Positions 16,505 to 38,107 of a stretch of DNA of 44,207 nucleotides are shown here, in pieces. This DNA comes from an uncultured Geobacteraceae bacterium. Its GTDB lineage: Bacteria > Desulfobacterota > Desulfuromonadia > Geobacterales > Pseudopelobacteraceae. The notes below the pieces were generated by a model that did not search any database, had not been told where the DNA came from, and saw nothing but the letters and a program-made list of their open reading frames with translations. The stretch spans positions 1 through 44,207 of the forward strand of contig CAIRND010000077.1 of the NCBI GenBank assembly GCA_903879825.1, read 5' to 3'. The translations under genes and the position numbers were made by a program. How positions within the stretch are numbered: position 1 is the first letter of the stretch; each line of letters begins with the position of its first letter.

Positions 16505-19500
16505 TCATTTATGTTTAAAAATTGCCCCGTTCTGAGCCCACCCATACCCTGTACTCAGATTAAAAATTGTTGATATTTGTTGATTGCCACTCAATATTTG
16601 ATATTCCATGGCAAGCGGTTGATGAGTGTTTGAATCTTCGGTCGGAATAGCAATCATAGTGAATCCGGGACCTGCACTTGTGACGGCATTACCATTATGG
16701 GTACCGGAACCGATGGCAAGATTTCCTGCTAAAGTCGGGGTCATATTTCCGGAAGTGGGCGTCGATCCCGAACCTGTCGCTCCAGCTGTCGCGTCAAGTG
16801 CCAATACCGCATCTATTCCGGAAAATTCAGCGACTGCCATTGATATCTGACCACCGGATTTGACGGTGTTGACGGTAACGGCAACCGCACCACCAATAAT
16901 GTTCGTTGTATAGTAGATTGCACTGTACGCTCCTTGAGAAACAAGCACAGTACCGGCGATTTTGTAGATATTACCCAAACTATCGGTAACGGCAGTTGCG
17001 GCAGGCAAATTTGGCCAACCCGAGACCGAAACAACAATAAAATTACCGGCAGTGGCATTTGAAGAAAGAGTTGCCGTCAGATTCTGTGCGCTGGCGGTTA
17101 TGCTGGAAGCTTTTTGAACTAAAGCGATGTTATTGGAAGTTGTGATGCTCACTGCGCTGCTCATAGTGCTATTACCGGCGGCGTCATACGCTTTAGCGGT
17201 AAGGAGGTGAGTGCCATTCGACGTGAGTCCACTGTTCCAGGACCAGACATAAGGACTCATGGTGTCTGTCGCCTGAAGAGCGCCATCAAGGTAAAATTCT
17301 ACTTTTGTCACACCAATAGTATCAGTGGCGTTTGCACTGACGGTAATTGCACCTGAGACCGTTGCCCCATTGCTTGGTGAAGTAATTGAGGCAGATGGCG
17401 GAGTAGTGTCTACTGTACCGGCTTCAGAGGCAATCTTCTGATAGAGGACCTTGGCGGCTTGATACCGTGCCTGCGCCGCAGTTCGCTCTGTCGGAAGGAA
17501 CGAACTCCAAGCGCCACCTGACGAAGTCTTCGCTATCAGATTATCCATCCACTGCACGTAAAACTGCGCATCAGCCGAACTGGCACGTACCGGCGCATTA
17601 TTTACCATCACAAACACTGCTGCGGTATGAACCATATGACCGTTGCTCCCCATCCTTCGCGCGGTCAGCCAACCACTCTTTGCGAAATTCACTGTTGCAC
17701 TCAGGCTTGCGGGAGTGCCCGAGCTAACTGACGCCTGCCTGCTGGCTATGACAACGCCGTTTTGCACCAACTCGATCGAGCCAGTCAGACTTTGCGTTGC
17801 CGTCCACTGAATATTCACCTGAACACTCCCTTGCCCCGTCAAGTTGATCTCATCTCCAGGGGTGGCAGTACCATTCACCGTCAAATTCAAAAATTCGTTA
17901 TGCCCGTTTCTCGACACAACAGTTCTTCCATTTGCAATTCCATTGATCCAGTTGCCATACGTCATCTGCCCACCGGCTACTTGTGAATAGGTCAAGAGAG
18001 AACCGACTGGATCGCCGCAATTACACGGATAGTCTGTTCCCCCCGCAAAACCGGGACGAAAACCGCAGTTAAGCAAGCGGTAATAGGCATTAATGAAACA
18101 GTCTGGACACAATGGAGCACTGACTCCAGGTGCCGCTGCCCCTCCACAGGTGGAATTGGAGTCATCAACGTCCTCCGAAATAAAGTCACTCGCCCCCAAA
18201 GCCACTTCGACGGGATACTCAATGGGGGTACAACACGTCAAACCATTCGGAATAGTGTTAGTGTCGTCCAGGTACTGCATATGGGCAAACCCTGCAATGC
18301 CGCTGCGCTGATGAACCCAGTTGAAAATGGGATAGGTATATTCATCCCACACCTGGAATGCCTGACTAAGACCCAATGCCACAATGTGCCCTCCCAGCGC
18401 CTGGTGAGGAAACTGAGGATACGTAGGATCCCAGTGCCACTCAGCATCCCAATGTACGATCCGCCCCGGCGTTGACGCAGAGGCATCTTGTCCATTAACA
18501 AGCGGCAGATCAGTTGTGGGGTTTTGAAGCTCGCCGTTACCCATATCGGCCAGCAGGGATATGACGGAGAGATTATTTGTGGCCATTTTTCCATACAAGC
18601 TTGACATCGTTTCCGGAGAGTTGCCACAGCTCCGATGTACATGCATATCTCCCGCATACCAGCCAGACGGCTCAGGTCCCGCTGTTTGCAATGTAATGGT
18701 AACGCTCGCATTTCTGCTCACCGACACATTGCCGGCGGCATCTTTTGCCCACGCGTAGAGAGTTTTGCTCCCTGATGATGCACAGGTGTACGTGGTGGGG
18801 GATGTTGCCGACCACCCGGTGAGCGTTGCGATTGGAGCGGTAGCCGATTCCGTGACCAGGTAACCGGTAACACCGACATTGTCGATAGCAGTAAAGCTAT
18901 TTATCAAAACGGACAGTGTCGTGGCGGTGGCCGGAGTAGTGAATGCTGTCACCGTTGGCGGAGTCGGATCGGCAGATGCAATAGAGCTGAACACGACATC
19001 CACCCAGTAATTTGAACTTTTCCAGTCCTGGGTGGGGAATTTGCTGGCCGAGCCATAAGCATACACGCCATTGAAACCGGATACTCCGGCCGCCAAGGCA
19101 TGAAGTGGAGGACTGTCAATGCCCTTACTTGCAAAATAGTTCTGGTCGTCGCTGTAGTGCCCCACATTAGTATGGTAGGAGGCCACGTAAATCGTGTTTG
19201 CGATGATGGCTACAGGAGTCGCAAAGTTCACCTGCTGCCAGCCGGAGGAAGTTTCACCGGCAAAGGTAGCCGTGGCAAGAAGTGCACCACTGCTCGTCCA
19301 AAGATTACCGATGTGGGTTCCGGTATTGGATTTCGCCTTATAGAAACGGATGCCGGATATGGAGCCGTTCGAATCGGCACGGAATTTCACCCCCACTTCG
19401 ATTGCACTGTCAGGGCCGTCGTCAGCCACTACGGGAGTCGCCGTGCCGGGCCAGATAGTGTAATTAGTTGCTGCGAAGATCGGCGTTATCGGAAACATGA

Positions 19501-19570
19501 TTAACACCATAGCCAGGACTAACAATTGAATTAGCTGTATTAAAGGCCTGTTACGCTGATTATTTTTCAT
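16505..19570 (-). CDS. Secreted modular protein: DUF4082-like domain, Ig-like domain, PHP/CehA-McbA-like metallohydrolase core, Ig-like domain, shared C-terminal module
   Basis: SD GGAGAGGGG lies 7 nt upstream of ATG 19570. Signal peptide MKNNQRNRPLIQLIQLLVLAMVLIMFPITPIFA. DUF4082-like motifs: GIRFYKAKSNTGTHIGNLW...SGWQQVNF...YVASYH. Core begins GWYAGDMHVHRSCG. Ends ...AQNGAIFKHK. Confidence 0.85.
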   Translation of the reverse strand: MKNNQRNRPLIQLIQLLVLAMVLIMFPITPIFAATNYTIWPGTATPVVADDGPDSAIEVGVKFRADSNGSISGIRFYKAKSNTGTHIGNLWTSSGALLATATFAGETSSGWQQVNFATPVAIIANTIYVASYHTNVGHYSDDQNYFASKGIDSPPLHALAAGVSGFNGVYAYGSASKFPTQDWKSSNYWVDVVFSSIASADPTPPTVTAFTTPATATTLSVLINSFTAIDNVGVTGYLVTESATAPIATLTGWSATSPTTYTCASSGSKTLYAWAKDAAGNVSVSRNASVTITLQTAGPEPSGWYAGDMHVHRSCGNSPETMSSLYGKMATNNLSVISLLADMGNGELQNPTTDLPLVNGQDASASTPGRIVHWDAEWHWDPTYPQFPHQALGGHIVALGLSQAFQVWDEYTYPIFNWVHQRSGIAGFAHMQYLDDTNTIPNGLTCCTPIEYPVEVALGASDFISEDVDDSNSTCGGAAAPGVSAPLCPDCFINAYYRLLNCGFRPGFAGGTDYPCNCGDPVGSLLTYSQVAGGQMTYGNWINGIANGRTVVSRNGHNEFLNLTVNGTATPGDEINLTGQGSVQVNIQWTATQSLTGSIELVQNGVVIASRQASVSSGTPASLSATVNFAKSGWLTARRMGSNGHMVHTAAVFVMVNNAPVRASSADAQFYVQWMDNLIAKTSSGGAWSSFLPTERTAAQARYQAAKVLYQKIASEAGTVDTTPPSASITSPSNGATVSGAITVSANATDTIGVTKVEFYLDGALQATDTMSPYVWSWNSGLTSNGTHLLTAKAYDAAGNSTMSSAVSITTSNNIALVQKASSITASAQNLTATLSSNATAGNFIVVSVSGWPNLPAATAVTDSLGNIYKIAGTVLVSQGAYSAIYYTTNIIGGAVAVTVNTVKSGGQISMAVAEFSGIDAVLALDATAGATGSGSTPTSGNMTPTLAGNLAIGSGTHNGNAVTSAGPGFTMIAIPTEDSNTHQPLAMEYQILSGNQQISTIFNLSTGYGWAQNGAIFKHK
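16508..17128 (-). other. Shared ~207-aa terminal module, copy A (family not recognised)
   Basis: IALVQKASSITASAQNL...ATAGNFIVVSVSGWPNLPAATAVTDSLGN...GAYSAIYY...GGQISMAVAEFSGI...LAGNLAIGSGTHNG...PTEDSNTHQPLAMEYQ...NGAIFKHK. Confidence 0.8.
17426..18673 (-). other. PHP-like / CehA-McbA-like metallohydrolase core (approximate limits)
   Basis: GDMHVH at the start of the core, followed by His-rich clusters HWDAEWHW, GGHIVALG, GFAHMQ, AGGTDYPC and HTAAVFV. Confidence 0.45.
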
Positions 19571-19610
19571 TTCCCCTCTCCTTTTTTATGTCTATTGAGA
19601 CTTCATGAAA

Positions 19611-22600
19611 TTATTTATGTTTGAAAACGGCTCCGTTCTGAGTCCACGTATAACCGGTGCTCAAACTGAAAGACGTCGATATCTGCTGATTTCCGCTCAT
19701 AACCTGATACTCCATTGCAAGCGGTTGATGAGTGTTTGAATCTTCGGTCGGGACGACGATCATCGTCAATCCTGACCCCGCACCTGTAACGGTAGTACCG
19801 TTGTGGGTACCGGAGCCAATTACAAGATTACCTGCTAAAGTCGGGGTCATATTCCCGGAAGAGGGTGAAGTTCCCGATCCTGTTGCTCCTGCAGTCGCAT
19901 CCAGAGGCGAAACGGGATCTATCCCTGAAAATTCAGCAACGGCCATTGATATCTGCCCACCGGATTTAGGGGTCGTTACGGTGACCGTATCCGCCCCACC
20001 TTTTACGTTCTTTGAATAATAGATGGCACTGTATGCACCTTGGGAAACGAGGACGGTACCGGCGATACTATAAGCATTTCCAAGGCTGTCGGTGACGGCG
20101 GTTGCAGTCGGCAGATTTGGCCAACCCGAGACGGAAACGACAATGAGATTACCAGCGGTAACATTAGCGGGCAGGGCGACAGCAAGCTTCTGGGCGCTGG
20201 ATGTAATATTGGACACTTTTTGAATGAGAGAGATACTATTGGAAACCGTGACAGGCACGATGCCGCCTGTACTGCTATTGCCGGCTGCGTCATACGCCAT
20301 GGCGGTAAGGGAGTGAGCTCCGTTAGAAACTTGTGTGCTGTTCCACGACCATACGTATGGACTCGTGTTGTCAGTGGCCTGAAGTGTACCGTCAAGATAA
20401 AATTCAACTCTGGTTACGCCGACATCATCGCTGGCGTTAACAGTAACGGAAACGGTGCCGGAAACTGTAGCTCCACTGAGAGGATTGGTAATTGAAACCA
20501 CCGGTGGAATAGAATTTGTTGAGTAATTAACCTGATAGGTACCGGTCGCAGCAAGGAAACGGGCATACCGGACACCTTTGATCGTTACCGTTGTATATGA
20601 GATTGAACTTCCGTTGGATGTTATGCCGGATACGGTTTGCCCATTTGCCACCGGCACCATTGCCACTAATCCGGTAGCACCCGATGCGACACTGATTGAG
20701 AAGCTGAGCATGTTTCCGTTCCAGGAAAACGAACTGAAGGTAGAACCGTTGCGGCCATCCAACCAGGTCAGCAATTGGCGTGAGGAGATCACCGGGATGC
20801 TATGGGCCACTGCAGAACCAATGATCGCATCGGAGCCGCTCGAACTGGGGACATCGGTATGCATGTTGGCCACAAAAGCGCCATAATAGCCGGTTGGTCC
20901 GGTCGCTCCGTCGAGCAAAGCATCTATCGTCGCCGGGAATGTCTGACCAGATTCGTCAGTCATTTGGGTGGTCGCCTGATACGTGTCGATCAGATTGCCG
21001 TTGATGTCGGTAAAGCGCATTGGCATGCCGGAACCGGTAAAGAAGCCGGGACGATCGGCGACCCAGTATGGGGGGTAATAGTAATACGATGTATCCAGTC
21101 GTATGCCATGCTTGAACTCTATCATCGGTACAGTGGACCAGTCGCTCCAAGAGATGCAGTGGTTCCGGTTCGTTGAAGAATTGGGAAGGCCCGGGAATTT
21201 TTGTTTGAATTTCGTGAGCTGGCTGGACACGGTGTTTTCGAACGACGCCGGAGTAAAGTTGGCGCAACCGGTATCATTATTGGAAGAGCCGTCCCCGGTA
21301 TTGACATGCAACGCAACTTCGAAACCGGAGGCAGTATAGGCGACCGCCTGGGCATCACTGAGAATTATTGCGGAGGTGGGCCAGACATACGAGGTGCTGC
21401 GGATGCACTCCCAGTTGACCACTGAACAACCGGGAGCACTTGCAGATTTGTAAGAATCGAACCGCCCTGCGGTCCCCGCTGTTCCCCAGCCATGGTCGTC
21501 GCCGGTCATGACGACTACCGCAGGCAGGCTGCGCGGGAAATACCAGAAGCGCGGCAGCGGTTTTTTATCCAGATTCATCTGGATGATCAGGTTTGCCAAC
21601 AGGCGCTGCTGCTCGTCAGCCTGGGGGATTGAAACCTTATTGAGGTTGATCCAGTCGGGCTTGGGATCCGAAGCGGCGTTTCCATAAAACAGGTCATCGG
21701 GGCGTACCGGGAAATAGCCGTCCCTCTCCTGCCCAGCCCAGACGGGATTTCCCTGGTGGGTGTAGACCACCGAACGGGCAAGATCAAAGGCAAATGCTGC
21801 CGCCTGACCACCCAGAGAGCCGACACTTTGCAGTGTGACAGCCGGATTGCTGGTAGCGGACGTGTCGGTGGCGTAGAGAGTAGCGATGCTGGCAGCGCCG
21901 CTGAGATTGTAGAGGTTTGCCGCGCCATGATATTGAATCGTCTGGTTAACGATCCCGACACCTGGTCCGGAAGCGGTATTTACCAGAAGATACGCATCTG
22001 AAATTGTTGCCGCCAGGTCGGTCAGTCCGAGCAGGCCGGCTATTTTGGGATCTGGATGCATCGCGATTAGATGCCCCCCGCTATTGACCCAGTTGGTCAG
22101 CGTCGTGACCTGGGCTGCCGTCAGCGGTATGTCGCCGAGGATGGCCACGTCATACGAGGTGAGCAGCGTGGACGTTACCGCCGAGATATCGATCATGGCA
22201 AATGCGTTAAACCCTTCTGCCCGGAGAATCTCGGCATAGTAGCTGCTGAAGGGGCTCGAAGCGGACGAGATGATCAGGATCGGTCCGCCTGAAGGGAGCG
22301 AAATGATAACTGAAGCGCTCCTGCTGGTCGACACGTTACCGGCGGCATCCCTGGCCCAGGCGTAGAGAGTCTTGCTCCCCGCGGTCGCGAAGTTATAAGA
22401 AGCCGGAGCTGTTAACGACCAACCGGCGGCGGTAGCAAGAGGAGCGGTGGACGATTCGGTGACCAGGTAGCCGGTCACCCCGGAGGTATCGGTTGCGGTG
22501 AAGCTGGTGATCGCCACGGCCAGCGACGTCGCGGTGGACGGAATGGTGAACGCGGTCACTGTCGGCGACGTTGTATCGGAAAGGGTAATGGTAACCGAAG

Positions 22601-23462
22601 CGCTCCTGCTGGTCGACACGTTACCGGAGGCATCCCTGGCCCAGGCGTAGAGAGTCTTGCTCCCCGCTGTCGCGAAGTTATAGGAAGCCGGAGCTGTTGC
22701 CGACCAACCGGCGGCGGTCGCAAGAGGAGCGGTGGACGATTCGGTGACCAGGTAGCCGGTCACCCCGGAGGTATCGGTTGCGGTGAAGCTGGTGATCGCC
22801 ACGGCCAGCGACGTCGCGGTGGACGGAATGGTGAACGCGGTCACTGTCGGCGACGTTATGTCGGGTGGTACCGTTGTACTGAATACCACATCCACCCAGT
22901 AGTTGGAGCTGAACCAGTCCTGATTAGGAAACGTGCCGGCAGGGCCGTAGGCGTAGACGCCATTAGCACCTGAAACCCCGGCTGCCAGTGCATGAAGCGG
23001 CGGAGTGTCCACTCCTTTACTGCTGAAATAATTCGGGTCGTCACTGTAACGCCCGACATTGGTGTGATAGGAAGCAACATAGGCCGTATTAGCGGTGACT
23101 GTCACCGGGATGGCGAAGTCCACCTGCTGCCACCCCGAGGCGGTCTCATTGGTAAAAGTTGCCGTGGCCAGAAGTATGCCGCTGTTCGACCAGAGATTGC
23201 CCACATGGGTACCGGTATTGGAACTCGCCTTGTAGAAGCGTATGCCGGTTATGGAGCCGTTTGAATCGGAACTGAACCTCACTCCGACCTCGATGGAAGA
23301 AGTGTCCGGGTCGGCTGTAACCACAGGTGTTGTGGTGGCAGGCCAGATGGTGAAACCGGTCGAAGCGCCGTCGGCCTTAGTCAGACAAAAGGTAAATAAC
23401 ACAATCAGGAAGGTTAAAAAAACTGGAAGAATAGAGAGCCTGCCACACTGAGGAACTTTCAT
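19611..23462 (-). CDS. Secreted modular protein: DUF4082-like domain, 2 near-identical Ig-like repeats, core of about 590 aa (amidotransferase-like + deacetylase-like), Ig-like domain, shared C-terminal module
   Basis: SD GGAGGTG upstream of the ATG. Signal peptide MKVPQCGRLSILPVFLTFLIVLFTFCLTKA. Core motifs: GGPILIISS...YYAEILRAEGFNAF...GGHLIAMHPDP...VVVMTGDDHGWG...GFEVALHVNTG. Ends TQNGAVFKHK. Confidence 0.85.
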   Translation of the reverse strand: MKVPQCGRLSILPVFLTFLIVLFTFCLTKADGASTGFTIWPATTTPVVTADPDTSSIEVGVRFSSDSNGSITGIRFYKASSNTGTHVGNLWSNSGILLATATFTNETASGWQQVDFAIPVTVTANTAYVASYHTNVGRYSDDPNYFSSKGVDTPPLHALAAGVSGANGVYAYGPAGTFPNQDWFSSNYWVDVVFSTTVPPDITSPTVTAFTIPSTATSLAVAITSFTATDTSGVTGYLVTESSTAPLATAAGWSATAPASYNFATAGSKTLYAWARDASGNVSTSRSASVTITLSDTTSPTVTAFTIPSTATSLAVAITSFTATDTSGVTGYLVTESSTAPLATAAGWSLTAPASYNFATAGSKTLYAWARDAAGNVSTSRSASVIISLPSGGPILIISSASSPFSSYYAEILRAEGFNAFAMIDISAVTSTLLTSYDVAILGDIPLTAAQVTTLTNWVNSGGHLIAMHPDPKIAGLLGLTDLAATISDAYLLVNTASGPGVGIVNQTIQYHGAANLYNLSGAASIATLYATDTSATSNPAVTLQSVGSLGGQAAAFAFDLARSVVYTHQGNPVWAGQERDGYFPVRPDDLFYGNAASDPKPDWINLNKVSIPQADEQQRLLANLIIQMNLDKKPLPRFWYFPRSLPAVVVMTGDDHGWGTAGTAGRFDSYKSASAPGCSVVNWECIRSTSYVWPTSAIILSDAQAVAYTASGFEVALHVNTGDGSSNNDTGCANFTPASFENTVSSQLTKFKQKFPGLPNSSTNRNHCISWSDWSTVPMIEFKHGIRLDTSYYYYPPYWVADRPGFFTGSGMPMRFTDINGNLIDTYQATTQMTDESGQTFPATIDALLDGATGPTGYYGAFVANMHTDVPSSSGSDAIIGSAVAHSIPVISSRQLLTWLDGRNGSTFSSFSWNGNMLSFSISVASGATGLVAMVPVANGQTVSGITSNGSSISYTTVTIKGVRYARFLAATGTYQVNYSTNSIPPVVSITNPLSGATVSGTVSVTVNASDDVGVTRVEFYLDGTLQATDNTSPYVWSWNSTQVSNGAHSLTAMAYDAAGNSSTGGIVPVTVSNSISLIQKVSNITSSAQKLAVALPANVTAGNLIVVSVSGWPNLPTATAVTDSLGNAYSIAGTVLVSQGAYSAIYYSKNVKGGADTVTVTTPKSGGQISMAVAEFSGIDPVSPLDATAGATGSGTSPSSGNMTPTLAGNLVIGSGTHNGTTVTGAGSGLTMIVVPTEDSNTHQPLAMEYQVMSGNQQISTSFSLSTGYTWTQNGAVFKHK
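19614..20234 (-). other. Shared ~207-aa terminal module, copy B
   Basis: Collinear with copy A over its full length and identical at most positions by eye. Ends NGAVFKHK. Confidence 0.8.
20511..22289 (-). other. ~590-aa enzyme-like core, copy 1 (amidotransferase/ThuA-like N-part + deacetylase-like barrel C-part; tentative)
   Basis: PILIISS...YDVAILGD...GGHLIAMHPD (alternating strand/helix pattern), then VVVMTGDDHGWG, ALHVNTG, NRNHCISWSDWS, GIRLDTSYYYYP, FVANMHTD. These resemble NodB/CE4-type motifs. Confidence 0.4.
22293..22862 (-). repeat. Near-identical 2 x 285-bp tandem duplication (two Ig-like repeats)
   Basis: The protein unit D(I/T)TSPTVTAFTIPSTATSLAVAITSFTATDTSGVTGYLVTESSTAPLATAAGWS... 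occurs twice with only a few substitutions. The DNA of the two copies is almost identical by eye. Confidence 0.9.
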
Positions 23463-23503
23463 CGGAACACCTCCCCCATCAAGTTCTAAAGATTTTTTCT
23501 GAA

Positions 23504-26500
23504 TTATTTATATTTGAAAATAGCCCCGTTCTGGGCCCAGGGATACCCGGCGCTTAAATTGAAAGTTGCCGCGGTCTGTTGGCCGTTTGATATTTTATAC
23601 TCCATGGCTAGTGGCTGATTCACGTGTGAATCTTCGGTTGGAATGGCAATCATCGTGAACCCTGTTCCAGCGGTCGTGACGGTAGTGGTATTATGGGTAC
23701 CGCATCCGATCACAAGATTTCCTGCAGCTCCCGGCGTCATGATTCCCGAGGAAGGGGTGGTTCCGTTACCTGTCGCTCCCGCAGTGGTATCAAGTGGTGA
23801 AACCGTGTTCACACCAGAAAATTCGGCAACTACCATCGATATCTGGCTATTGGTATTAACGGCATTAAAGGTAATCGCTGTCGCCCCGCCGATCACATTT
23901 CTTGCAAAGTAAATGGCACTGTATGCTCCTCCAACTGTCATAACGGCGCCGGCGCTGCTGTAGGTATTCCCCTGACTGTCGGTAACGGCCGGGGAAGCCG
24001 GCAAATTCGGCCATCCCGATACGGCTACCACGATAAAATTACCGGCAGTAACATTTTCAGGAAATTCGGAAGTTACGTTTTGATCACTGTCAGTGATGTT
24101 GGATGCGGCCTGGACCAATGAAATATTAGGTACTGAGATCGTTACCGAGGCGCTCATGCCGGCCGATACGTTTCCGGCAGCGTCCTTGGCCCATGAATAC
24201 AGAATCTTGCTCCCGTCCGTAGCAAACGTGAATGAACCCGGAACAGTAGCGGACCATCCGGTTGCCGTCGGCAAGGGAGCACTGCCGGATTCGTTGACCA
24301 GATAGCCAGTTACAGCAACGTTGTCGGTAGCGGTTATGCTGGTGATCGGCACAGTCAGTGCTGATGAAGCGGCTGGAATGGTGAAAGCGCTTATAACCGG
24401 CGGGCTCATATCGGTAAAATTGACCTGGTAGGATCCTGTCGCCGCCGGGAAGGTAATGTATCTTATGCCTTTGACCGTCAAGATAGTGGAGACTACCGCA
24501 GTCCCATTTTGCGTGACGTTCGACACCGTCTGACTTTCGGACAGCGGCACCATGGCCACCAGGCCATTGGCGCCCGCCGCTGCGGTGATGGAAAGGGTAA
24601 CAGAATTCAGGTTCCTTGAAAGCGAACTGTATGACGAACCATTCCGGCCATCCAGCCAGGTCAGCAACTGTCGAGAGGAGATCACCGGAATCGCATGGGA
24701 TTTTGCTGAACTGATGATTGCGTCGGATTCGCTCGATGAAGCTACGTCAGTATGCATGTTGGCCACAAAGGCTCCATAGTACCCCTTTGACCCGGCAGCA
24801 GCGTCGAGCAGTGCATTGATCGTCATCGGGTATGTCTGGCCTGATTCATCAGTCAACTGGGTGGCTGCCTGGTACGTGTCGATAAGATTACCGTTGATGT
24901 CAGTAAAGCGCATCGGCATGCCGGAACCGGTAAAGAAGCCGGGACGATCGGCAACCCAGTATGATGGGTAATAGTAATAGGATGTATCCAGTCGTATTCC
25001 GTGATTGAGCTCTACCAGAGGTACAGTGGACCAGTCGCTCCAGGCGATGCAGTGGTTCCGGTTCGTTGCCGGCTTGGGGAGACTCGGGAATTTCTGGCTG
25101 AAGGTAGTGAGTTGGGTGGACACGGTGTTTTCAAACGATGCCAGGGTAAAGTTGGCGCAGCCGGTAACGTTATTTGACGTGCCGTCCCCGGTGTTGACAT
25201 GCAGCGCAACTTCGAAACCGGAGGCATTATAGGCGGCAGCCTGGGCATCACTGAGAATGATAGCGGGGGTGGGCCAGACGTACGAGGTACTGCGGATGCA
25301 CTCCCAGTTGGCCACGGAACAGCCTGAAGTGCTGGCAGATATGTTTGAATCGAATCGCCCTGCGCTTCCGGCGGTTCCCCAGCCATGGTCGTCACCGGTC
25401 ATGACAATTACCGCCGGCAGGTTGCGCGGGAAATACCAGAAGCGCGGCAGAGGTTTTTTATCCAGATTCATCTGGATGATCAGGTTTGCCAGCAGGCGCT
25501 GCTGCTCATCAGCCTGGGGGATTGAAACCTTATTGAGGTTGATCCAGTCGGGCTTGGGATCCGAAGTGGCGTTTCCATAAAACAGGTCATCGGGGCGTAT
25601 CGGCGAATAGCCGTCCCGCTCCTGCCCCACCCAGGCGGGATTGCCCTGATGGGTATAGACCACCGAACGGGCAAGATCAAAGGCAAAAGCTGCCGCCTGA
25701 CCACCTTGGGAGCCGACGTTTTGCAGTGTGACAGCCGGATTGGAGGTAGAGTTCGTATCGGTGGCGTAGAGAGTTGCGATGCTGGCAGCGCCGCTGAGAT
25801 TGTAGAGGTTTGCCGCACCATGATATTGAATCGTCTGGTTAACGATCCCGGCACCTGGTCCGGAAGCGGTATTTACCAGAAGATACGCATCTGAAATCGT
25901 TGCCGCCAGATCGGTCAGTCCAAGCAGGCCGGCGAGTTTGGGATCCGGATGCATCGCTATCAAATGTCCCCCGCTATTGACCCAGCTAGTAAGCGTCGTG
26001 ACCTGGGCTGCCGTCAGCGAAATGTCGCCGAGGATGACCACGTCATACGAGGCGAGCAGCGAGGAAGTTACCGCCGATATGTCGCTCATGTTAAAAGCGT
26101 TAAACCCTTCTGCCCGGAGAATTTCGGCATAGTAACCGCTGAAGGGGCTCGAAACGGACGAGATGATCAGGATCGGTCCGCCTGAAGGGAGCGAAATAAC
26201 AACTGAATCGCTACTGCTGGTCGACACATTGCCGGCGGCATCCCTGGCCCAGGCATAGAGGGTCTTGTTTCCCGCCGTTTCAAAGCTGAAGGAAGCGAGG
26301 GGTCCTGACGACCATCCGGCGTCAGTTGCGAGAGGAGCGGTGTTCGATTCGGTAACCAGATATCCGGTCACTCCAATGTTGTCCGTCGCCGTGAAACTGC
26401 TGATCAGTACGGACAACGTGGTGGCGGTAGTCGGAATGGTAAACGCAGATACCGTCGGCCGGGTCGTATCAACTGTGACGGGAGCGCTTCTGCTCGCGGA

Positions 26501-29500
26501 TATGTAACCAACAGCATCCTTGGCCCAGGCATACAGGGTTTTGTTTCCTGTCGTTGAACAGGTGTAGGAAACAGGAGCAGTTGCACTCCATCCGGCAGCA
26601 GTTGCCAAAGGAACAGTAGCCGATTCGGTGACCAGGTAACCGGTCACCGCGACATTGTCCGTTGCGGTGAAAGTGGAGATGGATACAGTGAGGCTATTTG
26701 CCGCTGCCGGAATTGTAAATGCGGTCACTGACGGCGCAGTAGTATCATTAAAGGCAATGTTAACGGCGGCACTCCTGCTGGTCGACACATTGCCGGCAGC
26801 GTCTTTGGCCCAGGCAAAAAGAGTCTTGCTCCCTATCGACGTGAAGGTGTAGGAGGTCGGGACCGTTATGCTCCAACCGGCATCCGTTGCGAGAGGAGCG
26901 GTGGACGATTCGGTGGCCAGATAACCGGTTACCCCGATGTTGTCCGTCGCGCTGAAGCTGGTGATCGGTATGGAAAGTGTGGTGGCGGAAGCAGGTATGG
27001 TGAATGCTGTTACCGTCGGCGCGGCCGAATCCGTAACAGTAACTGCGGCACTGCGGCTTGTCGATACATTAGCGGCGGCGTCTTTGGCCCAGGCATAGAG
27101 CGTCTTGCTCCCTGGTGTTGTGAAGGTGTAGGAAGTCGGGGCTGTTACGCTCCACCCGGCTGCCGTTGCGAGAGGAGCGGTGGCGGTTTCATTGACAAGA
27201 AAGCCGGTCACCCCGATGTTATCCGTCGCGGTGAGGCTGCTGATCAATATCGAAAGTGTGGTGGCGGAAGCAGGAATCGTGAATGCGGTCACTGTCGGTG
27301 CAATTGGATCCGAAATGGTAACAACAGCACTCTTGCTTGTAGACACATAAGATGCAGCGTCCCTGGCCCAGGCATAGAGAGTTTTGCTCCCTGTCGAGGT
27401 AAAGGTGTAGAAAGCCGGGGCCGTTGCACTCCAGCCGGCAGCCGTTGTGAGAGGAGCGGAGGACGATTCATTTACCAGGTAGCCGGTCACCCCGATGTTG
27501 TCCGTCGCGATGAAGCTGCTGATCGATATGGTAAGTGTGGTGGCGGCAGCCGGAACAGTAAACGCGGTAACTGTCGGTCTGATCGTATCTGTGATGGAAA
27601 CTGCAGCACTCCTGCTTGTCGAGACGTTGCCGGCTGTGTCTCTGGCCCAGGCATATAGAGTTTTGCTCCCTGTTGACGTGAAGGTATAGGAAACCGGGGC
27701 TGGTGCGCTCCAACCGGTATCCGTTGCCAAAGGAGCGGTGGCCGATTCGGTGGCCAGGTAGCCGGTCACTCCGATATTGTCCGTCGCGGTGAAGCTGGTG
27801 ATCGACACGGACAACGTAGTAGCTGTTGCCGGAATTGCAAAGACAGTCACTGCCGGCTTGGTCGTATCGACCGTGACGGCGGCACTCCTGCTTGCGGATA
27901 CGACACCGGCAGCATCCTTGGCCCAGGCATACAGGGTCTTGCTGCCTGTCGATGCAAAGGTGTAGGTAGTCGGTGCCGTTGCGCTCCAGCCACCAGCCGT
28001 TGCCAAAGGAGCGGTGGCCGATTCGGTGACCAGGTAGCCGGTCACCCCGATGTTGTCCGTCGCGGTGAAACTGGTGATCGATACGGTGAGAGTATTTGCC
28101 GCTGCCGGAATCGTAAACGTGATCACTGCCGGTGCTGTCGTATCCGTGATGGAAACGACCGCGCTCCTGCTTGCCGACACATTACCGGCGGCATCCCTGC
28201 CCCAGGCATACAGGGTCTTACTTCCTGTCGATGCAAAGGTGTAGGTAGTCGGGGCAGTTGCGCTCCAGCCACCAGCCGTTGCCAAAGGAGCAGTGGCCGT
28301 TTCGGTAACCAGGTAGCCGGTCACCCCGGTGTCGTCAGTCGCGGTGAAGGTAGTAATTGAGACAGAAAGCGTGGTGACGGTAGCCGGAACGGTGAACGCG
28401 GTCACTGTCGGCGCAGTCGTATCCGTGACGGAAACGGCCGCGCTCCTGCTTACCGACACATTACCGGCGGCATCCCTGGCCCAGGCATACAGGGTCTTAC
28501 TCCCTGTCGAGGTAAAGGCATAGGAAGTCGGCGCCGTTGCGCTCCAGCCACCAGCCGTTGTCAAAGGAGCAGTGGCCGATTCGGTAATCAGGTAGCCGGT
28601 CACTCCGGTGTCGTCAGTCGCGGTCAAGGTAGTAATAGATACAGAAAGCGTGGCGACTGCAGCCGGAACGGTGAACGCGGTCACTGTCGGGGCCGTCGAA
28701 TCCATGATGGTGACGACGGCGTTCCTGCTTGCCGACACATTGCCGGCGGCGTCCCTGGCCCAGGCATACAGGGTCTTGCTCCCTGTCGAAATAAAAGTAT
28801 AGGTAGTCGGGGCCGTTGCGCTCCAGCCACCAGCCATTGCCAAAGGAGCAGTGGCCGATTCGTTAATCAGGTAGCCGGTCACTCCGGTGTCGTCAGTCGC
28901 GGTCAAGGTGGTAATCAATACGGAAAGTGTGGCAGAGGTAGACGGCACGGTAAAGGTGGTCACTGTCGGCGGCGTCGTATCAGGCAGCGTGATGGTCACG
29001 GCAGCGCTCCTGCCTGTCGATACGTTACCGGCAGAGTCCTTGCTCCATGCATAGAGGGTCTTACTTCCTGCTGTTGTAAAAACATAGAAAAGCGGGGCGG
29101 AAGTGCTCCAGCCGCCAGCCGTGGCGAGAGGAGCAGAGGCGGTTTCATTAACCAGATAGCCGGTCACCCCGATGTCGTCCGTCGCGGTCAAGCCGGTGAT
29201 CGATACAGAAAGTGCGGCAGAGGTAGACGGCACAGTAAAGGTGGTCACTGTCGGCGGCGTCGTGTCGGGTGGCGGGGTTGTGGTAAACACTACATCGACC
29301 CAGTAGTTGCTACTGTTCCAACTCTGACCGGGGAAAGTGCCGGCAGCGCCGTAGGCAAATACGCCATTCGTGTTGGAGACACTGTCGGCCGGTGCGTGGA
29401 GTGGCGTATTGTCCACGCCTGCGCCAGCAAAGTATCCCCGATTGACACTGAAATGGCCGGCACCGGAGTGGTAAGAGGCTATGTAGCCCGTATTTGCGCT

Positions 29501-31432
29501 GATGGCCACCGGGACTGAGAAGTTCACCTGCTGCCACCCGGAGGCGGTTTCATCGGCAAAGGTGGCCGACGCAAGTAATGTGCCGGTGGCCGTCCAGAGG
29601 TTGGCGACATGGGTGCCGGTGTTGGCACTCGCCTTGTAGAAACGGACGCCGGAGATGAAGCCGCTGACATCGGTCTGAAAGCGGAGTCCCAGCTCCACCG
29701 GACTGTCTGGACCGCCGTCCACTATTGCAGGTACTGTCGTATTTTGCCAGATTGTGACATTTGTCGTTGAATACGTAACGACAACGGCAGCACTCTTGCC
29801 AACCGAAACATTACCGGCGGCATCTCTGGCCCAGGCATACAGGATCTTGCTTCCTGCCGAAGTGAAAGTATATGAGGTCGGAGGCGTTGAGATCCAACCA
29901 ACAGCCGTTGCAAGAGGAGCTGAAGCAGATTCATTGACCAGATAGCCGGTCACCCGGGAATCATCCGTTGCGGTAAAACCGTTAATCGCTACGGATAGTG
30001 AGGCGGCAGCAGCCGGAATCGTAAACACTGTCACCACCGGCGGAATCGTATCTGGCGTTGAACTCGAGCTGAACACCACATCGACCCAGTAATTGCAACC
30101 GTTCCAACTCTGGCTGGGGAAGCTGCTGGTGGAGCCGTAAGCAAACACGCCGTTCGAACCGGACACGCCGTCAGCCGGAGCGTGGAGCGGGGCGTTATCC
30201 ACTCCTTTTCCGGAAAAATATCCCCGGTCAACACTAAAATGACCTGTACTGGCATGATAAGATGCTACGTAGGACGTATTGGCACTGATAGCCACCGGGG
30301 CAACGAAGTTCACCTGCTGCCATCCAGATGCGGTTTCGCCGGTAAAAGTTGCCGTGGCAAGCAGTGTACCGGTGCTCGACCAGAAGTTGGCGACATGGGT
30401 GCCGGTATTACTGCTCGCCTTATAGAATCGGATACCCGTAATGAAACCACTGACATCGGACTGGAAATTGACGCCCAATTCCAGCGCGCTGTCTGGACCG
30501 GAATCAACAATTCCGGGCACAGCCGTGTCGGCCCAGATGGTGATATTCGTTGTGGAAGGAGTGACCGTAACGGCGGCACTCCTGCTCGTTGACACATTAC
30601 CAGCGGCGTCCCTGACCCAGGCATAGAGATTCTTACTTCCTGCTGACGCGAAGGCATAAGCACTCTGTGGAGTCGCGCTCCAGCCACCAGACGCGGCGGG
30701 AGGAGCAACAGCCGATTCGGTGACCAGATAGCCGGTCACACCGACGTCGTCGGAAGCGGTGAAACTGGCTATAGCAACGGTCAGGGACGTCGCGGTAGGC
30801 GGAACGGTGAATGCGGTCACAACCGGTGGCGTTGTGTCCGGGGTGGCACTCGTACTGAACACCACATCGACCCAGTAATTGCAGCTGTTCCAGCTTTGAC
30901 CAGGGAAACTGCTGGTGGCACCATAGGCGTACACACCGTTTGAACCGGACACGGTGTCAGCAGGAACATGCAGCGGTGAGCGGTCCACACCTGTGTTTGT
31001 AAAATAACTCCTATCAACGCTGAAATGAGCAACGCTTGTGTGGTAGGAGGCGGTATAAATAGTATTGGCGGATATTGCCACCGGAGTAGAGAAATTCACC
31101 TGCTGCCATCCGGATGCGCTTTCACCGGTAAATGTGGCCGTGGCAAGAAGTGAGCCGGTAACCGACCAGAGGTTGCCGATATGAGTGCCGGTATTGGTGC
31201 TTGCCTTGTAAAAGCGGATGCCTGTGATATAGCCGTTTGTGTCAGACTGAAACCTTACCCCTAATTCCACAGCACTATCAGGGCCTGAGTCTACTGTTGA
31301 AGGTATCGTAGTTTCGGGCCATATTGTTACACTTGCGGCCTCACCGGTGATCGGCAATAGGAGTGATATTATTACAAGGACAGATAAGACAACCGGAAAC
31401 GTTATAAACTTATCAAAATAATTGCATTTCAT
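23504..31432 (-). CDS. Giant secreted modular protein (about 2642 aa): 3 DUF4082-like domains, 14 Ig-like repeats, the same ~590-aa core as the neighbouring gene, shared C-terminal module
   Basis: The track start at 31453 is a GTG. ATG 31432 is preceded by GGGGGTG 5 nt upstream and yields signal peptide MKCNYFDKFITFPVVLSVLVIISLLLPITGEA. One uninterrupted frame of nearly 8 kb. Ends AQNGAIFKYK. Confidence 0.85.
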   Translation of the reverse strand: MKCNYFDKFITFPVVLSVLVIISLLLPITGEAASVTIWPETTIPSTVDSGPDSAVELGVRFQSDTNGYITGIRFYKASTNTGTHIGNLWSVTGSLLATATFTGESASGWQQVNFSTPVAISANTIYTASYHTSVAHFSVDRSYFTNTGVDRSPLHVPADTVSGSNGVYAYGATSSFPGQSWNSCNYWVDVVFSTSATPDTTPPVVTAFTVPPTATSLTVAIASFTASDDVGVTGYLVTESAVAPPAASGGWSATPQSAYAFASAGSKNLYAWVRDAAGNVSTSRSAAVTVTPSTTNITIWADTAVPGIVDSGPDSALELGVNFQSDVSGFITGIRFYKASSNTGTHVANFWSSTGTLLATATFTGETASGWQQVNFVAPVAISANTSYVASYHASTGHFSVDRGYFSGKGVDNAPLHAPADGVSGSNGVFAYGSTSSFPSQSWNGCNYWVDVVFSSSSTPDTIPPVVTVFTIPAAAASLSVAINGFTATDDSRVTGYLVNESASAPLATAVGWISTPPTSYTFTSAGSKILYAWARDAAGNVSVGKSAAVVVTYSTTNVTIWQNTTVPAIVDGGPDSPVELGLRFQTDVSGFISGVRFYKASANTGTHVANLWTATGTLLASATFADETASGWQQVNFSVPVAISANTGYIASYHSGAGHFSVNRGYFAGAGVDNTPLHAPADSVSNTNGVFAYGAAGTFPGQSWNSSNYWVDVVFTTTPPPDTTPPTVTTFTVPSTSAALSVSITGLTATDDIGVTGYLVNETASAPLATAGGWSTSAPLFYVFTTAGSKTLYAWSKDSAGNVSTGRSAAVTITLPDTTPPTVTTFTVPSTSATLSVLITTLTATDDTGVTGYLINESATAPLAMAGGWSATAPTTYTFISTGSKTLYAWARDAAGNVSASRNAVVTIMDSTAPTVTAFTVPAAVATLSVSITTLTATDDTGVTGYLITESATAPLTTAGGWSATAPTSYAFTSTGSKTLYAWARDAAGNVSVSRSAAVSVTDTTAPTVTAFTVPATVTTLSVSITTFTATDDTGVTGYLVTETATAPLATAGGWSATAPTTYTFASTGSKTLYAWGRDAAGNVSASRSAVVSITDTTAPAVITFTIPAAANTLTVSITSFTATDNIGVTGYLVTESATAPLATAGGWSATAPTTYTFASTGSKTLYAWAKDAAGVVSASRSAAVTVDTTKPAVTVFAIPATATTLSVSITSFTATDNIGVTGYLATESATAPLATDTGWSAPAPVSYTFTSTGSKTLYAWARDTAGNVSTSRSAAVSITDTIRPTVTAFTVPAAATTLTISISSFIATDNIGVTGYLVNESSSAPLTTAAGWSATAPAFYTFTSTGSKTLYAWARDAASYVSTSKSAVVTISDPIAPTVTAFTIPASATTLSILISSLTATDNIGVTGFLVNETATAPLATAAGWSVTAPTSYTFTTPGSKTLYAWAKDAAANVSTSRSAAVTVTDSAAPTVTAFTIPASATTLSIPITSFSATDNIGVTGYLATESSTAPLATDAGWSITVPTSYTFTSIGSKTLFAWAKDAAGNVSTSRSAAVNIAFNDTTAPSVTAFTIPAAANSLTVSISTFTATDNVAVTGYLVTESATVPLATAAGWSATAPVSYTCSTTGNKTLYAWAKDAVGYISASRSAPVTVDTTRPTVSAFTIPTTATTLSVLISSFTATDNIGVTGYLVTESNTAPLATDAGWSSGPLASFSFETAGNKTLYAWARDAAGNVSTSSSDSVVISLPSGGPILIISSVSSPFSGYYAEILRAEGFNAFNMSDISAVTSSLLASYDVVILGDISLTAAQVTTLTSWVNSGGHLIAMHPDPKLAGLLGLTDLAATISDAYLLVNTASGPGAGIVNQTIQYHGAANLYNLSGAASIATLYATDTNSTSNPAVTLQNVGSQGGQAAAFAFDLARSVVYTHQGNPAWVGQERDGYSPIRPDDLFYGNATSDPKPDWINLNKVSIPQADEQQRLLANLIIQMNLDKKPLPRFWYFPRNLPAVIVMTGDDHGWGTAGSAGRFDSNISASTSGCSVANWECIRSTSYVWPTPAIILSDAQAAAYNASGFEVALHVNTGDGTSNNVTGCANFTLASFENTVSTQLTTFSQKFPSLPKPATNRNHCIAWSDWSTVPLVELNHGIRLDTSYYYYPSYWVADRPGFFTGSGMPMRFTDINGNLIDTYQAATQLTDESGQTYPMTINALLDAAAGSKGYYGAFVANMHTDVASSSESDAIISSAKSHAIPVISSRQLLTWLDGRNGSSYSSLSRNLNSVTLSITAAAGANGLVAMVPLSESQTVSNVTQNGTAVVSTILTVKGIRYITFPAATGSYQVNFTDMSPPVISAFTIPAASSALTVPITSITATDNVAVTGYLVNESGSAPLPTATGWSATVPGSFTFATDGSKILYSWAKDAAGNVSAGMSASVTISVPNISLVQAASNITDSDQNVTSEFPENVTAGNFIVVAVSGWPNLPASPAVTDSQGNTYSSAGAVMTVGGAYSAIYFARNVIGGATAITFNAVNTNSQISMVVAEFSGVNTVSPLDTTAGATGNGTTPSSGIMTPGAAGNLVIGCGTHNTTTVTTAGTGFTMIAIPTEDSHVNQPLAMEYKISNGQQTAATFNLSAGYPWAQNGAIFKYK
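23507..24124 (-). other. Shared terminal module, copy C (206 aa)
   Basis: ISLVQAASNITDSDQNV...VTAGNFIVVAVSGWPNLPASPAVTDSQGN...QISMVVAEFSGV...NGAIFKYK. Confidence 0.8.
24407..26185 (-). other. ~590-aa enzyme-like core, copy 2 (paralogue of 20511..22289)
   Basis: Collinear with copy 1, with long stretches of nucleotide identity. For example, the shadow ORFs 21587..21961 and 25480..25854 are near-identical. Confidence 0.4.
26189..29275 (-). repeat. Array of 11 contiguous Ig-like coding repeats, each about 93 aa (~279 bp)
   Basis: Consensus: TAPTVTAFTVPAxATTLSVSITSFTATDNIGVTGYLVTESATAPLATAGGWSATAPTSYTFTSTGSKTLYAWAKDAAGNVSxSRSAAV. The periodicity also shows in the plus-strand shadow ORFs at 27495, 27777, 28050, 28329 and 28608. 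Confidence 0.9.
28988..31333 (-). repeat. Triplicated unit of about 260 aa (~780 bp): DUF4082-like domain + Ig-like domain
   Basis: Each unit starts xVTIWxxTxVPxxVDSGPDSxxELGV and ends YAWxRDAAGNVSxxxSAAV. Units span roughly aa 41-300, 301-562 and 563-822 of the track ORF. Confidence 0.85.
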
Positions 31433-31493
31433 CTTTACACCCCCATGTCTCACACATCAGATACAGTCGATTATTTCTCTATTTATTTGACAT

Positions 31494-34400
31494 TTATTTG
31501 TGTTTAAAAAGCGCGCCATTCTGAGTCCAGGCTATGCTAGCTCCTAATCTAAAAGTAGCCGCCGTCTGTGGAGTTCCGGTTAGAACCTGGTATTCCATGG
31601 CAAGTGGCTGACGGTTATTAGAAGTTTCCGTGGCGATAGCAACCATTGTAAATCCGGTTCCCGCCGTCGTCACAGTCGTGCCGTTATGGGTACCGGAACC
31701 TATGGCAAGATCTCCAGCCAGACTAGGAGTCATGTTTCCGGAAGAAGGGGTACTCCCGGTACCTGTTGCTCCAGCCGTTCTGTCAAGCGGCGAAATCGTG
31801 TCTACCCCTGAAAATTCGGCCACTACCATTGAGATTTCTCCGCCGGATTTAACTGTTCTTACAGTAATCGTATCATTCCCACCGATTACATTTTTGGCGT
31901 AGTAGATGCCACTATAAGCTCCTTGAGAAGTCAGAACAGTGCCGGCGATACTATAGGTATTTCCCAAACTGTCGGTAACAGCGGTTGCAGCGGGAAGATT
32001 GGGCCAGCCCGACAGTGAAACGACGATAAGGTTACCTGCTGTTACTCTTGATGGCAGTGCTTTGGACAAATTTTGCGCACTGGAGGTTATGTTTGAAGTT
32101 TGTTGAACTAAGACGATATTTCCCGTTATTACCTGAGTAGTTGCTGAAGCTGCAGTTGATTGCGCTGAGTTGTTCCCGGCTGCGTCATAAGCCGAAACGA
32201 TGTACGTGTATGTCGTGGAAGGACTTAGGCCGGTGTTGTTATATGTCGTCCCGCTGACGGTGGTAATTTGTGTGCCGTTTCTGAAGATTTTATACCCCAC
32301 AACAGCAGTATTATCCGAGCTGGGACTCCACGAGAGATTGATCTGTGAGGTGGAAACGGCTGTGGCGGAAAGCCCGGTCGGGACAGTCGGAGCGGTGGTA
32401 TCCGTTGAAGATAGTGTTGTTGCTGAAGCTGCAGTTGATTGCGCTGAGTTGTTCCCGGCAGCGTCATAGGCTGAAACGATGTACGTGTATGTCGTAGAAG
32501 GGCTTAGGCCGGTGTTGTTATACGTCGTCCCGCTGACGGTAGTGATTTGTGTACCGTTTCTGAAGATTTTATACCCCGCAACAGCGTTATTATCCGTACT
32601 GGGACTCCATGAAAGGTTAATTTGTGAGGTGGAAACGGCTGTAGCGGAAAGCCCGGTCGGGACAGTCGGAGCGACCGTATCGTATGGAGAAACTCTAATA
32701 TAATCCAGCAATAACGTCTGTGGCAGTGTACTGTCGTTAATCGAGCCCCCGGAGCCCCCCATTGCAGTGTTTACCATAAGGAACATCGGAGTTGAAGGCA
32801 CTCCGGTCGTAACACGGCACGACATCACCCCGTCAATCAACCAGGTAAGGGATCCGGGTGCCCAGATGAGACCATATGTATGCCAGTTTTTGCTCGTATC
32901 GCTCGTACTCACGTTACAACCGAGGTTGTAACTGCCCGAGTGGATTCCCTGAAATATTTGCGTGGGATTGCTGTTCAGAATTTCTGTGACATCAATCTCG
33001 TCCGAACCAGGTTGAGGCCAGTTGCAGGGGGGGATATTGTCAGCGGAGTTCACGTTTGTCTGCTGGCAGTTGGAGCCAAGCATCCAAACTGCAGGCCAGG
33101 GGCCTTGTCCTCCGGCCATTCTTGCTTTGAATTCGATTGTTCCGTAAGTAAAGTTGAAGGACTTCCACTGTATCATTTCCGAGGTATACCGATAACCGGG
33201 CTTCGAGCTATCCAGCTTGCTTGTGATCGTCAGCAAGCCATCTGATACTGCAGCATTTGTCGGCAGATAATATTGCTGCTCATTATTGCTCGAATCACCC
33301 GGACGATTCATCGCAACCCACAGGGTTGAATCTAAAACGCTGCCATTAAATTCATCGACAAACGCGAAGCCCGGTGGCGGGTTACTGTCCGTTACTGGTG
33401 TGGTTTCATAGACTGGCGATGATTGAGCTGAGACATTTCCCGCACCGTCAAACGAGGCAACGGTATAGGAATACGTCGTCGATGCCTGAAGGCCGGTACT
33501 GGAATATGTGGTCGCAGTTGTAGACGCAATCTGAGTCCCGTCCCTGAATAGCTGATATCCAGCCACTCCCGTGGTAGTCTGTCCAATTATGGATGGGTCG
33601 ACAGACGCAGCCCAAGTGAGGTTGATTTGTGTTGTTGAATATGGCGTTGCGGTGAGCCCGGTCGGGACAACAGGCGGAGTGAGGTCCGGCCCTTGCGAAA
33701 CTCCCGGCTTGAACAGGACGCCGTTTTGCGACCAGTTAAAGCCAACGGCCAGGTTGAACGCAGCAACCGTTGTTTGCTGTGATGCGCTCAGAATCTGATA
33801 TTCCATAGCGAGCGGCTGGTGGCTATTTGAATCTTCGGTAGGCACGGCAATCATCGTGAACCCCGATCCAGGACTAGTCACCGTGTTGCCGTTATGCGTT
33901 CCGGAACCGATTACAAGATCTCCGTTCATGGTCGATGTCATGGACCCGGAAGATGGCGCAGTTCCTATTCCTGTAGTTCCGGCGACAGCATCGACAGGAG
34001 AATTTGGATCAACTCCGGCAAATTCGGCGACGACCATTGATATCTGTCCACCCGAAGCGACAGTCCTGAATGTCACCGTATCAGCCCCACCCTTTACATT
34101 CCTGGCATAATAGATGGCGCTATAGGCTCCCTGCGTTGTGAGCACCGTGCCTGCGATGTTGTAGGTATTTCCCAGACTATCGGTTACCGGGGTGGCCGCC
34201 GGCAGATTCGGCCAACCGGAAACGGAAACCACGATGAGATTCCCGGCGGTGATTGCGGCAGGAAACACGGTTGCAAGCGATAATGCGCTTGACGATATAT
34301 TTGACGCATTTTGAACAAGAGAAATCGTATTTTGAACAAGGTAGATGTCAGAAGCCTCAGCCTCAGCCTCAGCCTCAGCCTCAGCCTCAGCCTCAGCCTC

Positions 34401-35373: not shown

Positions 35374-35525
35374 AACGTTTCTCCTCATGATTTGATTTTG
35401 AATTCGGTGATTTGTCCCCCACTAAAAAAATGCCGGATAATTCAGGAACTGTTTTTTCCATTACCTGCAATCATTTGCCGTTAAACATTTTAATTTTGCA
35501 TAAGCGGAATTCCTGTCTATGAAAA

Positions 35526-38094: not shown

Positions 38095-38107
38095 CTCACC
38101 ACTATGC

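Follow-up and report, generated by a model that had tools for sequence, protein, structure and literature searches.

The four giant proteins encoded in tandem on a 44,207-nucleotide stretch of DNA from an uncultured Geobacteraceae bacterium (assembly GCA_903879825.1, contig CAIRND010000077.1, positions 1 to 44,207; referred to here as the window) share a module of about 207 residues. This module is an autonomous all-β domain of a very large unannotated family, common to phage virion and tail proteins and to bacterial giant surface proteins. We interpret it as a binding module that acts outside the cell and directs the four secreted proteins to a common ligand on the cell surface or in the surrounding matrix, probably a glycan, and assign this interpretation a probability of roughly 0.55. 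Both the binding of a ligand and its glycan nature are inferred.

The module is present five times in the window, always on the minus strand. Closing the first giant protein (1021 residues) is copy 1 (16508..17128; residues 815–1021), delimited by alignment and modelled with AlphaFold2. Copy 2 (19614..20234) forms the last 207 residues of the second protein (1283 residues), is 78% identical to copy 1 and scores 240 bits with a hidden Markov model (HMM) of the module. Copy 3 (23507..24124), the last 206 residues of the third protein (2649 residues), is the most divergent, with 67% identity to copy 1 and 60–67% to every other copy of the subfamily. The fourth protein (1056 residues), which carries a GH16 domain, holds two copies, both located by alignment and the module HMM: copy 4 (31497..32117) makes up its last 207 residues, and copy 5 (33702..34325), located also by translation, occupies residues 114–321, between the signal peptide with its (EA)n linker and an fn3 domain. 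The five intervals encode 206–208 residues and align over their whole length, interrupted only by one indel of a single residue; the copies are 66–78% identical to copy 1, with a mean column identity of 81%, a similarity far beyond chance. The terminal copies end in NGAIFKHK, NGAVFKHK, NGAIFKYK and NGALFKHK, whereas copy 5, preceded by SEVEV(EA)10, ends in NGVLFKPG and continues into a Pro-rich linker and fn3. Translation and end-to-end alignment thereby bear out the description given in a first-pass annotation of this DNA, made from the letters alone: five copies at these positions, long identical blocks within them, four proteins closing with NGA[ILV]FK[HY]K, and a fifth, internal copy following (EA)n in the GH16 protein.

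The module belongs to no curated family and has no solved structure. Searched against Pfam and NCBIfam at E ≤ 10, the five copies returned only noise (Chloroplast_duf and GAP1-N2, both below threshold), and in 80 diverse family members Pfam matched flanking Ig-type domains, with no family over the module. Among PDB sequences, all that matched profiles made from 5 and from 80 sequences were chance matches, an archaeal pilin (E 0.18) and ribosomal protein S11 (E 0.0055). The first-pass annotation had called the module unrecognised, and with no significant match in Pfam, NCBIfam or PDB sequences, for the five copies or the 80 family members, this description stands; nor did the searches bring up a well-characterised domain of unrelated role.

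Copy 1 is predicted by AlphaFold2, from an alignment of 80 sequences, to form a compact all-β structure of about 15 strands, with a mean predicted local distance difference test score (pLDDT) of 96.3 and a predicted template modelling score (pTM) of 0.93. A standalone phage member, 27% identical, gave the same type of model (pLDDT 92.1). The prediction supports an autonomously folded domain, as had been proposed at first pass. Compared by Foldseek with PDB entries to April 2026, the two models had no match at E ≤ 1e-3, and the best-ranked entries reached template modelling (TM) scores of at most 0.35; judged from these models, the fold appears to lack a solved representative detectable by Foldseek. 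Best ranked among the weak matches were double-jelly-roll capsid proteins, bicupins, GH172 and a lactococcal phage tripod chain, and an exo-arabinofuranosidase, a jelly-roll glycosidase, was also among them. Viral double-jelly-roll capsids, bicupins and GH172 recur in the weak matches of both models and share with the module an all-β, jelly-roll-like sandwich, but with TM scores of at most 0.32, E values of at least 0.004 and root mean square deviations (r.m.s.d.) of 10–24 Å there is no meaningful structural match.

Two further candidates were considered and rejected. Glutamic peptidase G1 (eqolisin), a β-sandwich with a Q/E dyad, came into consideration for the conserved residues Q5 and E101, and was absent from the PDB sequence matches and from the 50 top-ranked Foldseek matches of each model. 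A domain with an intramolecular isopeptide or ester cross-link was dismissed on the C-terminal Lys, which by eye is replaced by Arg or another residue in a number of homologues.

Far from being confined to this locus, the module is conserved very widely. When all of 1.84 billion representatives of 50%-identity clusters were searched with an HMM, 67,959 proteins matched at E ≤ 1e-3, of which 40,465 did so at E ≤ 1e-10 and 6,806 at E ≤ 1e-30; the best of them hold 2–7 module copies per protein. A word-indexed search yielded 133 relatives, many of them standalone proteins of ~230 residues and others fused to He_PIG, TIG, fn3 or Big_2. The top 150 proteins of the HMM search contain 385 instances of full length; the module is N-terminal in 86, internal in 245 and C-terminal in 54. 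Partner domains, detected in 59 of these 150 proteins, are for the most part Ig-like spacers, led by TIG (16), He_PIG (10) and fn3 (10) and including HYDIN/ASH-type, Big_2 and Big_7 domains; GH16, galactose-oxidase-like, chitobiase-C, RHS and DMFA2_C are occasional partners. In some bacterial standalone forms the end of a signal peptide coincides exactly with the first strand (AI.LVQ); many other standalone forms start with MAI.LVQ and have no signal peptide. One 349-residue protein, P0053, joins a prepilin- or pseudopilin-like N terminus (MVERKQSGYIALMAVLVLGAAALAVAVGLLL) to the module, an arrangement that may display the module on a pilus-like fibre.

The freedom of the module to stand at the N terminus, internally or at the C terminus, together with its standalone members in phages, argues against a C-terminal sorting signal, the role that the first-pass annotation had offered beside docking. 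As a sorting domain it would act like the C-terminal domain (CTD) of type IX secretion system (T9SS) substrates, being read by a translocon or a sortase-like enzyme and perhaps then removed. Such a role would suit the four window copies that lie at the very end of their proteins with a conserved NGAxFK[HY]K, the C-terminal placement that the family shows fairly often (54 of the 385 instances), and the need of the four proteins for some route across the outer membrane. Most instances, however, are internal or N-terminal, and the module is internal in close relatives too, so that the claim that it always forms the extreme C terminus holds for four copies of the window and fails in the close relatives and the wider family. 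The phage-encoded standalone members, moreover, lack a signal peptide. T9SS CTDs obligatorily occupy the extreme C terminus and comprise about 70–100 residues, and the module, at 207 residues, is two to three times as large. None of the five copies matched the T9SS CTD profile (Por_Secre_tail/TIGR04183) even at E ≤ 10, no other sorting-domain profile of Pfam or NCBIfam matched, and no T9SS is known from Geobacteraceae, Nitrospirota or Methylococcaceae, the lineages to which genomes with close relatives are assigned.

The sorting tag that is visible at the locus is instead the PEP-CTERM-like tail of a neighbouring 225-residue protein. A PEP-CTERM signal consists of a C-terminal PEP motif followed by a hydrophobic helix and then basic residues; the giant proteins have no such tail, ending in ...QNGAxFKHK with no hydrophobic helix. 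Pfam found no SLH match in the giant proteins or in the module copies. T9SS CTDs, PEP-CTERM signals and SLH domains all resemble the module in being conserved C-terminal elements across several secreted proteins of one locus, but the module is not bound to the C terminus, far exceeds them in size and has no match to a profile for sorting or anchoring. We therefore regard a sorting function as very improbable, and of the two roles first put forward it is docking that we favour, on indirect evidence.

The closest structural relatives of the module are predicted phage proteins. In a Foldseek comparison with predicted viral structures (BFVD), 75 matches reached E ≤ 1e-3, with E values down to 2e-15 and TM scores of 0.66–0.90; the top matches have query-normalized TM scores (TMq) of 0.81–0.90 and r.m.s.d. 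of 2.4–3.0 Å over about 220 columns. They comprise proteins of uncultured Caudovirales, many 'minor tail proteins' of Mycobacterium and Gordonia phages, and one protein annotated as 'Carbohydrate-binding, CenC-like'. In the actinophage minor tail proteins (for example those of Mycobacterium phages PP, Tweety, Gaia and Hawkeye and of Gordonia phage GodonK; phrog_553) and the Caudovirales proteins the same fold is predicted over ~210 residues, in domains that are similar in size to the module and that either stand alone or close longer proteins. These domains differ from the module in that sequence identity is only 10–25%, and in that they are parts of virions whereas the window modules are parts of Sec-exported bacterial enzymes; they are uncharacterised and have no solved structure. 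By sequence, the window copy matched no PHROG, two family members gave weak matches (P0015 to phrog_553, 'minor tail protein', E 2e-4; P0026 to phrog_26064, E 4e-5), and three family members searched by tblastn against GenBank phages gave none.

Pattern scans of IMG/VR with single proteins and with the five-copy alignment showed that relatives are encoded at 13 viral loci (L013–L025). On two phage contigs the signal-peptide-less P0067 and P0078, standalone members of 237 residues, are encoded between the genes for the major capsid protein and an SU10-type adaptor; a PHROG search with the proteins encoded beside the phage standalone members gave no informative match. Cryo-electron microscopy of mycobacteriophages offers an analogy, in that carbohydrate-binding module (CBM)-like domains of baseplate accessory proteins were interpreted as binders of host glycans (PMC13252515), which is a precedent for the proposed role and not for the fold of the module. 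Phage contigs that encode a standalone module protein also have, just upstream of the structural genes (L007, 1121–7532; L008, 140–7532), glycosyltransferase, methyltransferase, epimerase and hexapeptide-transferase genes grouped in what looks like a phage-borne glycan-modification cassette.

Following the domain in standalone phage members are short conserved tails (for example in P0019, P0026, P0027 and P0078: ..TLMMMGCGL, ..TMTMMGI, ..RSLLGVGL and ..LALLGVGA), which may serve as docking peptides for another virion protein. The resemblance of such tails (..LLGVG, ..MMGCGL) to docking peptides, and the position of the phage relatives within virion structural blocks, would suit a module for protein–protein oligomerisation or assembly that, as in the heads of phage fibres, trimerises or docks, and that would join the four giant proteins in a common surface layer or complex. 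It would suit this role, too, that the module is the only element common to the four proteins: Pfam detects no other shared domain, and the first-pass annotation was right on this point, signal peptides aside. The conservation across phyla of surface loops rich in W, H, N, E, D and Q, on the other hand, speaks for a small, conserved ligand more than for a protein partner that co-evolves, tandem arrays of several copies are not typical of trimerisation heads, and the module models are monomeric only. An assembly function seems unlikely to us.

Conserved over 485 instances of the family are Q5 (87%), G28 (95%), D49 (97%), N53 (92%), N76 (82%), E101 (95%), G104 (96%), D112 (93%) and E175 (81%), together with Y55, Y73, W197 and F204; the rest of the sequence is only about 25–30% identical. 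The conserved positions are mostly at strand ends and in neighbouring loops, and the conserved polar residues (81–97% of the 485 instances) are retained in every copy of multi-copy proteins. Judging by the alignment, Q5, D49, N53, N76, E101, D112 and E175 would form a structural, metal or ligand site. The window subfamily adds positions that are invariant within it and variable family-wide, most of them in the loops P39-N-L-P42 (after W38), H144-N-G and P162-T-E-D-S..Q-P171, and these loops may set its specificity.

Near-invariant acidic and amide residues in so divergent a family would also be expected of a new catalytic domain, for example a glycan hydrolase, lyase or esterase acting as a depolymerase in phages and in glycan processing in bacteria, with D49, E101, D112 and E175 in its active site. 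Phage tail proteins often carry depolymerases, and the top weak PDB matches include the jelly-roll glycosidases GH172 and exo-arabinofuranosidase, albeit with TM scores of 0.3 or less. Two to seven tandem copies with the motif in all of them are, however, unusual for enzymes and typical of binding modules, the partner proteins already hold dedicated enzymes, and neither PDB sequence searches nor Foldseek revealed significant similarity to any enzyme. Because the polar residues are kept in every tandem copy, a structural or ligand site, repeated to raise avidity, fits better than a catalytic centre, and we hold an enzymatic role of the module to be improbable.

Relatives close to the window modules recur in other bacteria. 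In a scan of one genome per species, six loci (L001–L006) encode modules 68–73% identical to the query; according to the labels of the metagenome-assembled genomes (MAGs), their hosts are Geobacteraceae (three), Nitrospirota, Methylococcaceae and Deltaproteobacteria. The module is C-terminal in some proteins of these loci and internal in others. It is internal in relatives from L002, L004, L005 and L006 (60–79% identical), and homologous giant proteins end in other domains. All six proteins scanned with Pfam have a Big_7 domain shortly before the module (in proteins with two copies, before one of them at least), and DUF4082 is present in four of the six. L004, L005 and L006 each hold three or four giant genes in tandem that are built from the same domain kit and whose products have 60–69% amino acid identity to the window proteins, and in L002 and L006 the arrays are bordered by homologues of the window glycan genes. 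At an unrelated locus, L012, two adjacent module proteins are encoded among GT2, flippase, PIG-L, GtrA and PMT genes.

The window copies are 63–78% identical to one another and 60–79% identical to copies from other phyla. As they are no closer mutually than across phyla, concerted evolution of the window copies, which we had considered, is rejected. These identities indicate that the subfamily is under tight constraint, and the giant-gene array is probably horizontally mobile; its occurrence in MAGs assigned to Geobacteraceae, Nitrospirota, Methylococcaceae and Deltaproteobacteria implies horizontal spread of the array or binning errors. In L002, two module copies are 99% identical.

In the mechanism that we propose, the four multidomain proteins would be exported by Sec, and the module of each would bind one common ligand at the cell surface or in the matrix, most plausibly a polysaccharide and possibly the product of the flanking genes. 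Docking would concentrate on their substrate the enzymes that the proteins carry, namely a CehA-type metallohydrolase, two copies of an unannotated ~590-residue domain and a GH16 glycanase. We read the module as a binding module because of its phage structural relatives, its multi-copy and position-free use between Ig-like spacers, its fusion to glycan-active enzymes, the recurrence of glycan loci around it and the site kept in every tandem copy. Several points weigh against this interpretation. Neither Pfam nor Foldseek against the PDB gave a sequence or fold match to a characterised CBM or lectin; the near-invariant D/E/D(/E) set could mark an active site instead; and 'minor tail protein' is mostly a positional label, the phage domains being themselves uncharacterised.

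In architecture the module resembles the CBMs of glycoside hydrolases such as those of GH16, which are non-catalytic β-sandwiches, are joined to catalytic domains by linkers or Ig or fn3 domains, are often duplicated and act outside the cell in a glycan context. It differs from them in matching no CBM family profile or fold, and in exceeding most CBMs in size, with 207 residues and ~15 strands. The class of function is thus probably familiar, that of accessory binding domains of surface enzymes and phage tails, and the family itself new. More speculatively, the module may represent a new fold-level family for recognition of surface glycans that has passed between receptor-binding or virion proteins of phages and giant exoproteins of bacteria, with a conserved acidic, possibly Ca2+-binding, site by which the four enzymes would dock on the polysaccharide of their own locus; or else D/E/D/E may be catalytic and the family one of new glycan-active enzymes. 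We put this forward as a tentative and somewhat doubtful extension.

With at least 40,000 50%-identity clusters (E ≤ 1e-10) and no Pfam or NCBIfam model or solved structure, the family represents a sizeable annotation gap, and naming and characterising it would annotate thousands of bacterial giant surface proteins and many phage tail and virion proteins. Should glycan binding prove correct, the module would constitute a new CBM-type family. It would then provide a handle on host recognition by actinophages and environmental phages, and a route to study the tethering of enzymes to O-antigen or extracellular polysaccharide (EPS) in Geobacter-like, Nitrospirota and methanotroph lineages. Through the family, phage tail proteins are connected with the bacterial giant exoproteins of glycan loci in a way that is open to testing.

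The four giant open reading frames (ORFs) are arranged in tandem, all on the minus strand, and were annotated with Pfam and, for the enzymatic domains of the first and last, NCBIfam. Protein 1 (16505..19570; 1021 residues) is composed of a signal peptide, DUF4082, an Ig-like domain, a metallohydrolase of the CehA/McbA type (residues 303–654; NCBIfam NF038032, E 3e-39), Big_7 (residues 725–792) and the module. Protein 2 (19611..23462; 1283 residues) consists of a signal peptide, DUF4082, two Ig-like repeats, an unannotated central domain of ~590 residues, Big_7 (residues 987–1054) and the module. Protein 3 (23504..31453; 2649 residues) has a signal peptide, three DUF4082 domains, a long run of ~93-residue Ig-like repeats, the central domain of protein 2, an Ig-like domain and the module. 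In protein 4 (31494..34664; 1056 residues) the signal peptide and (EA)n are followed by a module, fn3, GH16 (residues 483–637, with NCBIfam matches of β-glucanase type), two fn3 domains and a second module. By Pfam, DUF4082 is limited to proteins 1–3, Big_7, which directly precedes the module, to proteins 1 and 2, and GH16 and fn3 to protein 4. A literature search on DUF4082 found nothing relevant.

The ~590-residue central domain, a second unannotated domain of the same giant proteins, spans residues ~400–985 of protein 2 (20600–22300), with its counterpart in protein 3 at ~24400–26200. It occurs also in homologues at L004, L005 and L006, and has a weak match to DUF4350 only. A stretch reading VVMTGDDHG...FEVALHVN suggests a hydrolase or deacetylase. 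Searched with phmmer against PDB sequences, neither the central domain of protein 1 nor that of protein 2 had a match.

Long in-frame tandem repeats lie within the giant genes. Tandem Repeats Finder detected in protein 3 an array of 10.9 copies of a 279-nucleotide Ig-like unit (26214–29263, 78% matches), and at 34353..34403 on the minus strand, read together with the translation, a perfect 6-nucleotide repeat (GAGGCT, 8.5 copies) that encodes the (EA)n linker. In-frame duplications of 285 nucleotides in protein 2 (22302–22864, 96% identical) and of 279 nucleotides covering fn3 in protein 4 (32140–32673, 92% identical) look recent. In a second assembly of the locus (ERZ1426816) the protein 4 gene, which carries (EA)n, is called at 1149 residues instead of 1056; the difference may stem from another choice of start or from polymorphism in length. 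The giant genes (18000–32000) have a GC content of 52–59% and a positive plus-strand GC skew, compared with 40–45% and a negative skew in the glycosyltransferase genes that flank them and share their coding strand. A foreign origin of the giant genes was considered on account of the higher GC content and judged less likely; their Thr/Ala/Ser/Pro-rich composition is probably the cause.

The window flanks are a polysaccharide locus. Downstream of the giant genes, at 2028..16266 on the minus strand, Pfam identifies glycan-assembly genes for GT1, GT2 and GT4 glycosyltransferases, a Wzy_C/O-glycosylation-ligase-like protein, an epimerase and an oxidoreductase. Upstream, at 35808..43952 on the same strand, Pfam and NCBIfam identify genes for the modification of sugar nucleotides: a formyltransferase, two DegT aminotransferases, of which one carries a fused hexapeptide-repeat domain, an epimerase and a GFO/IDH/MocA oxidoreductase. 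The same interval encodes the Wzm/Wzt ABC exporter. Directly upstream of the giant genes is the gene for the secreted 225-residue protein (34711..35388, minus strand), in which direct reading and a regular-expression scan found a signal peptide and a PEP-CTERM-like tail (PEPSTFILFGSIMAAVSFLRGKFHL). Its C-terminal motif, read from the sequence, is TPTPEPSTFILFGSIMAAVSFLRGKFHL; the NCBIfam scan reported no PEP-CTERM model on this ORF. The tail suggests that the source organism has an exosortase-type sorting system. The Wzy_C protein (8637–9995, minus strand) scored 62.9 bits against TIGR03097 ('putative O-glycosylation ligase, exosortase A system-associated'), below the 188-bit cutoff of this model, and the resemblance is consistent with a locus of the PEP-CTERM/EPS type.

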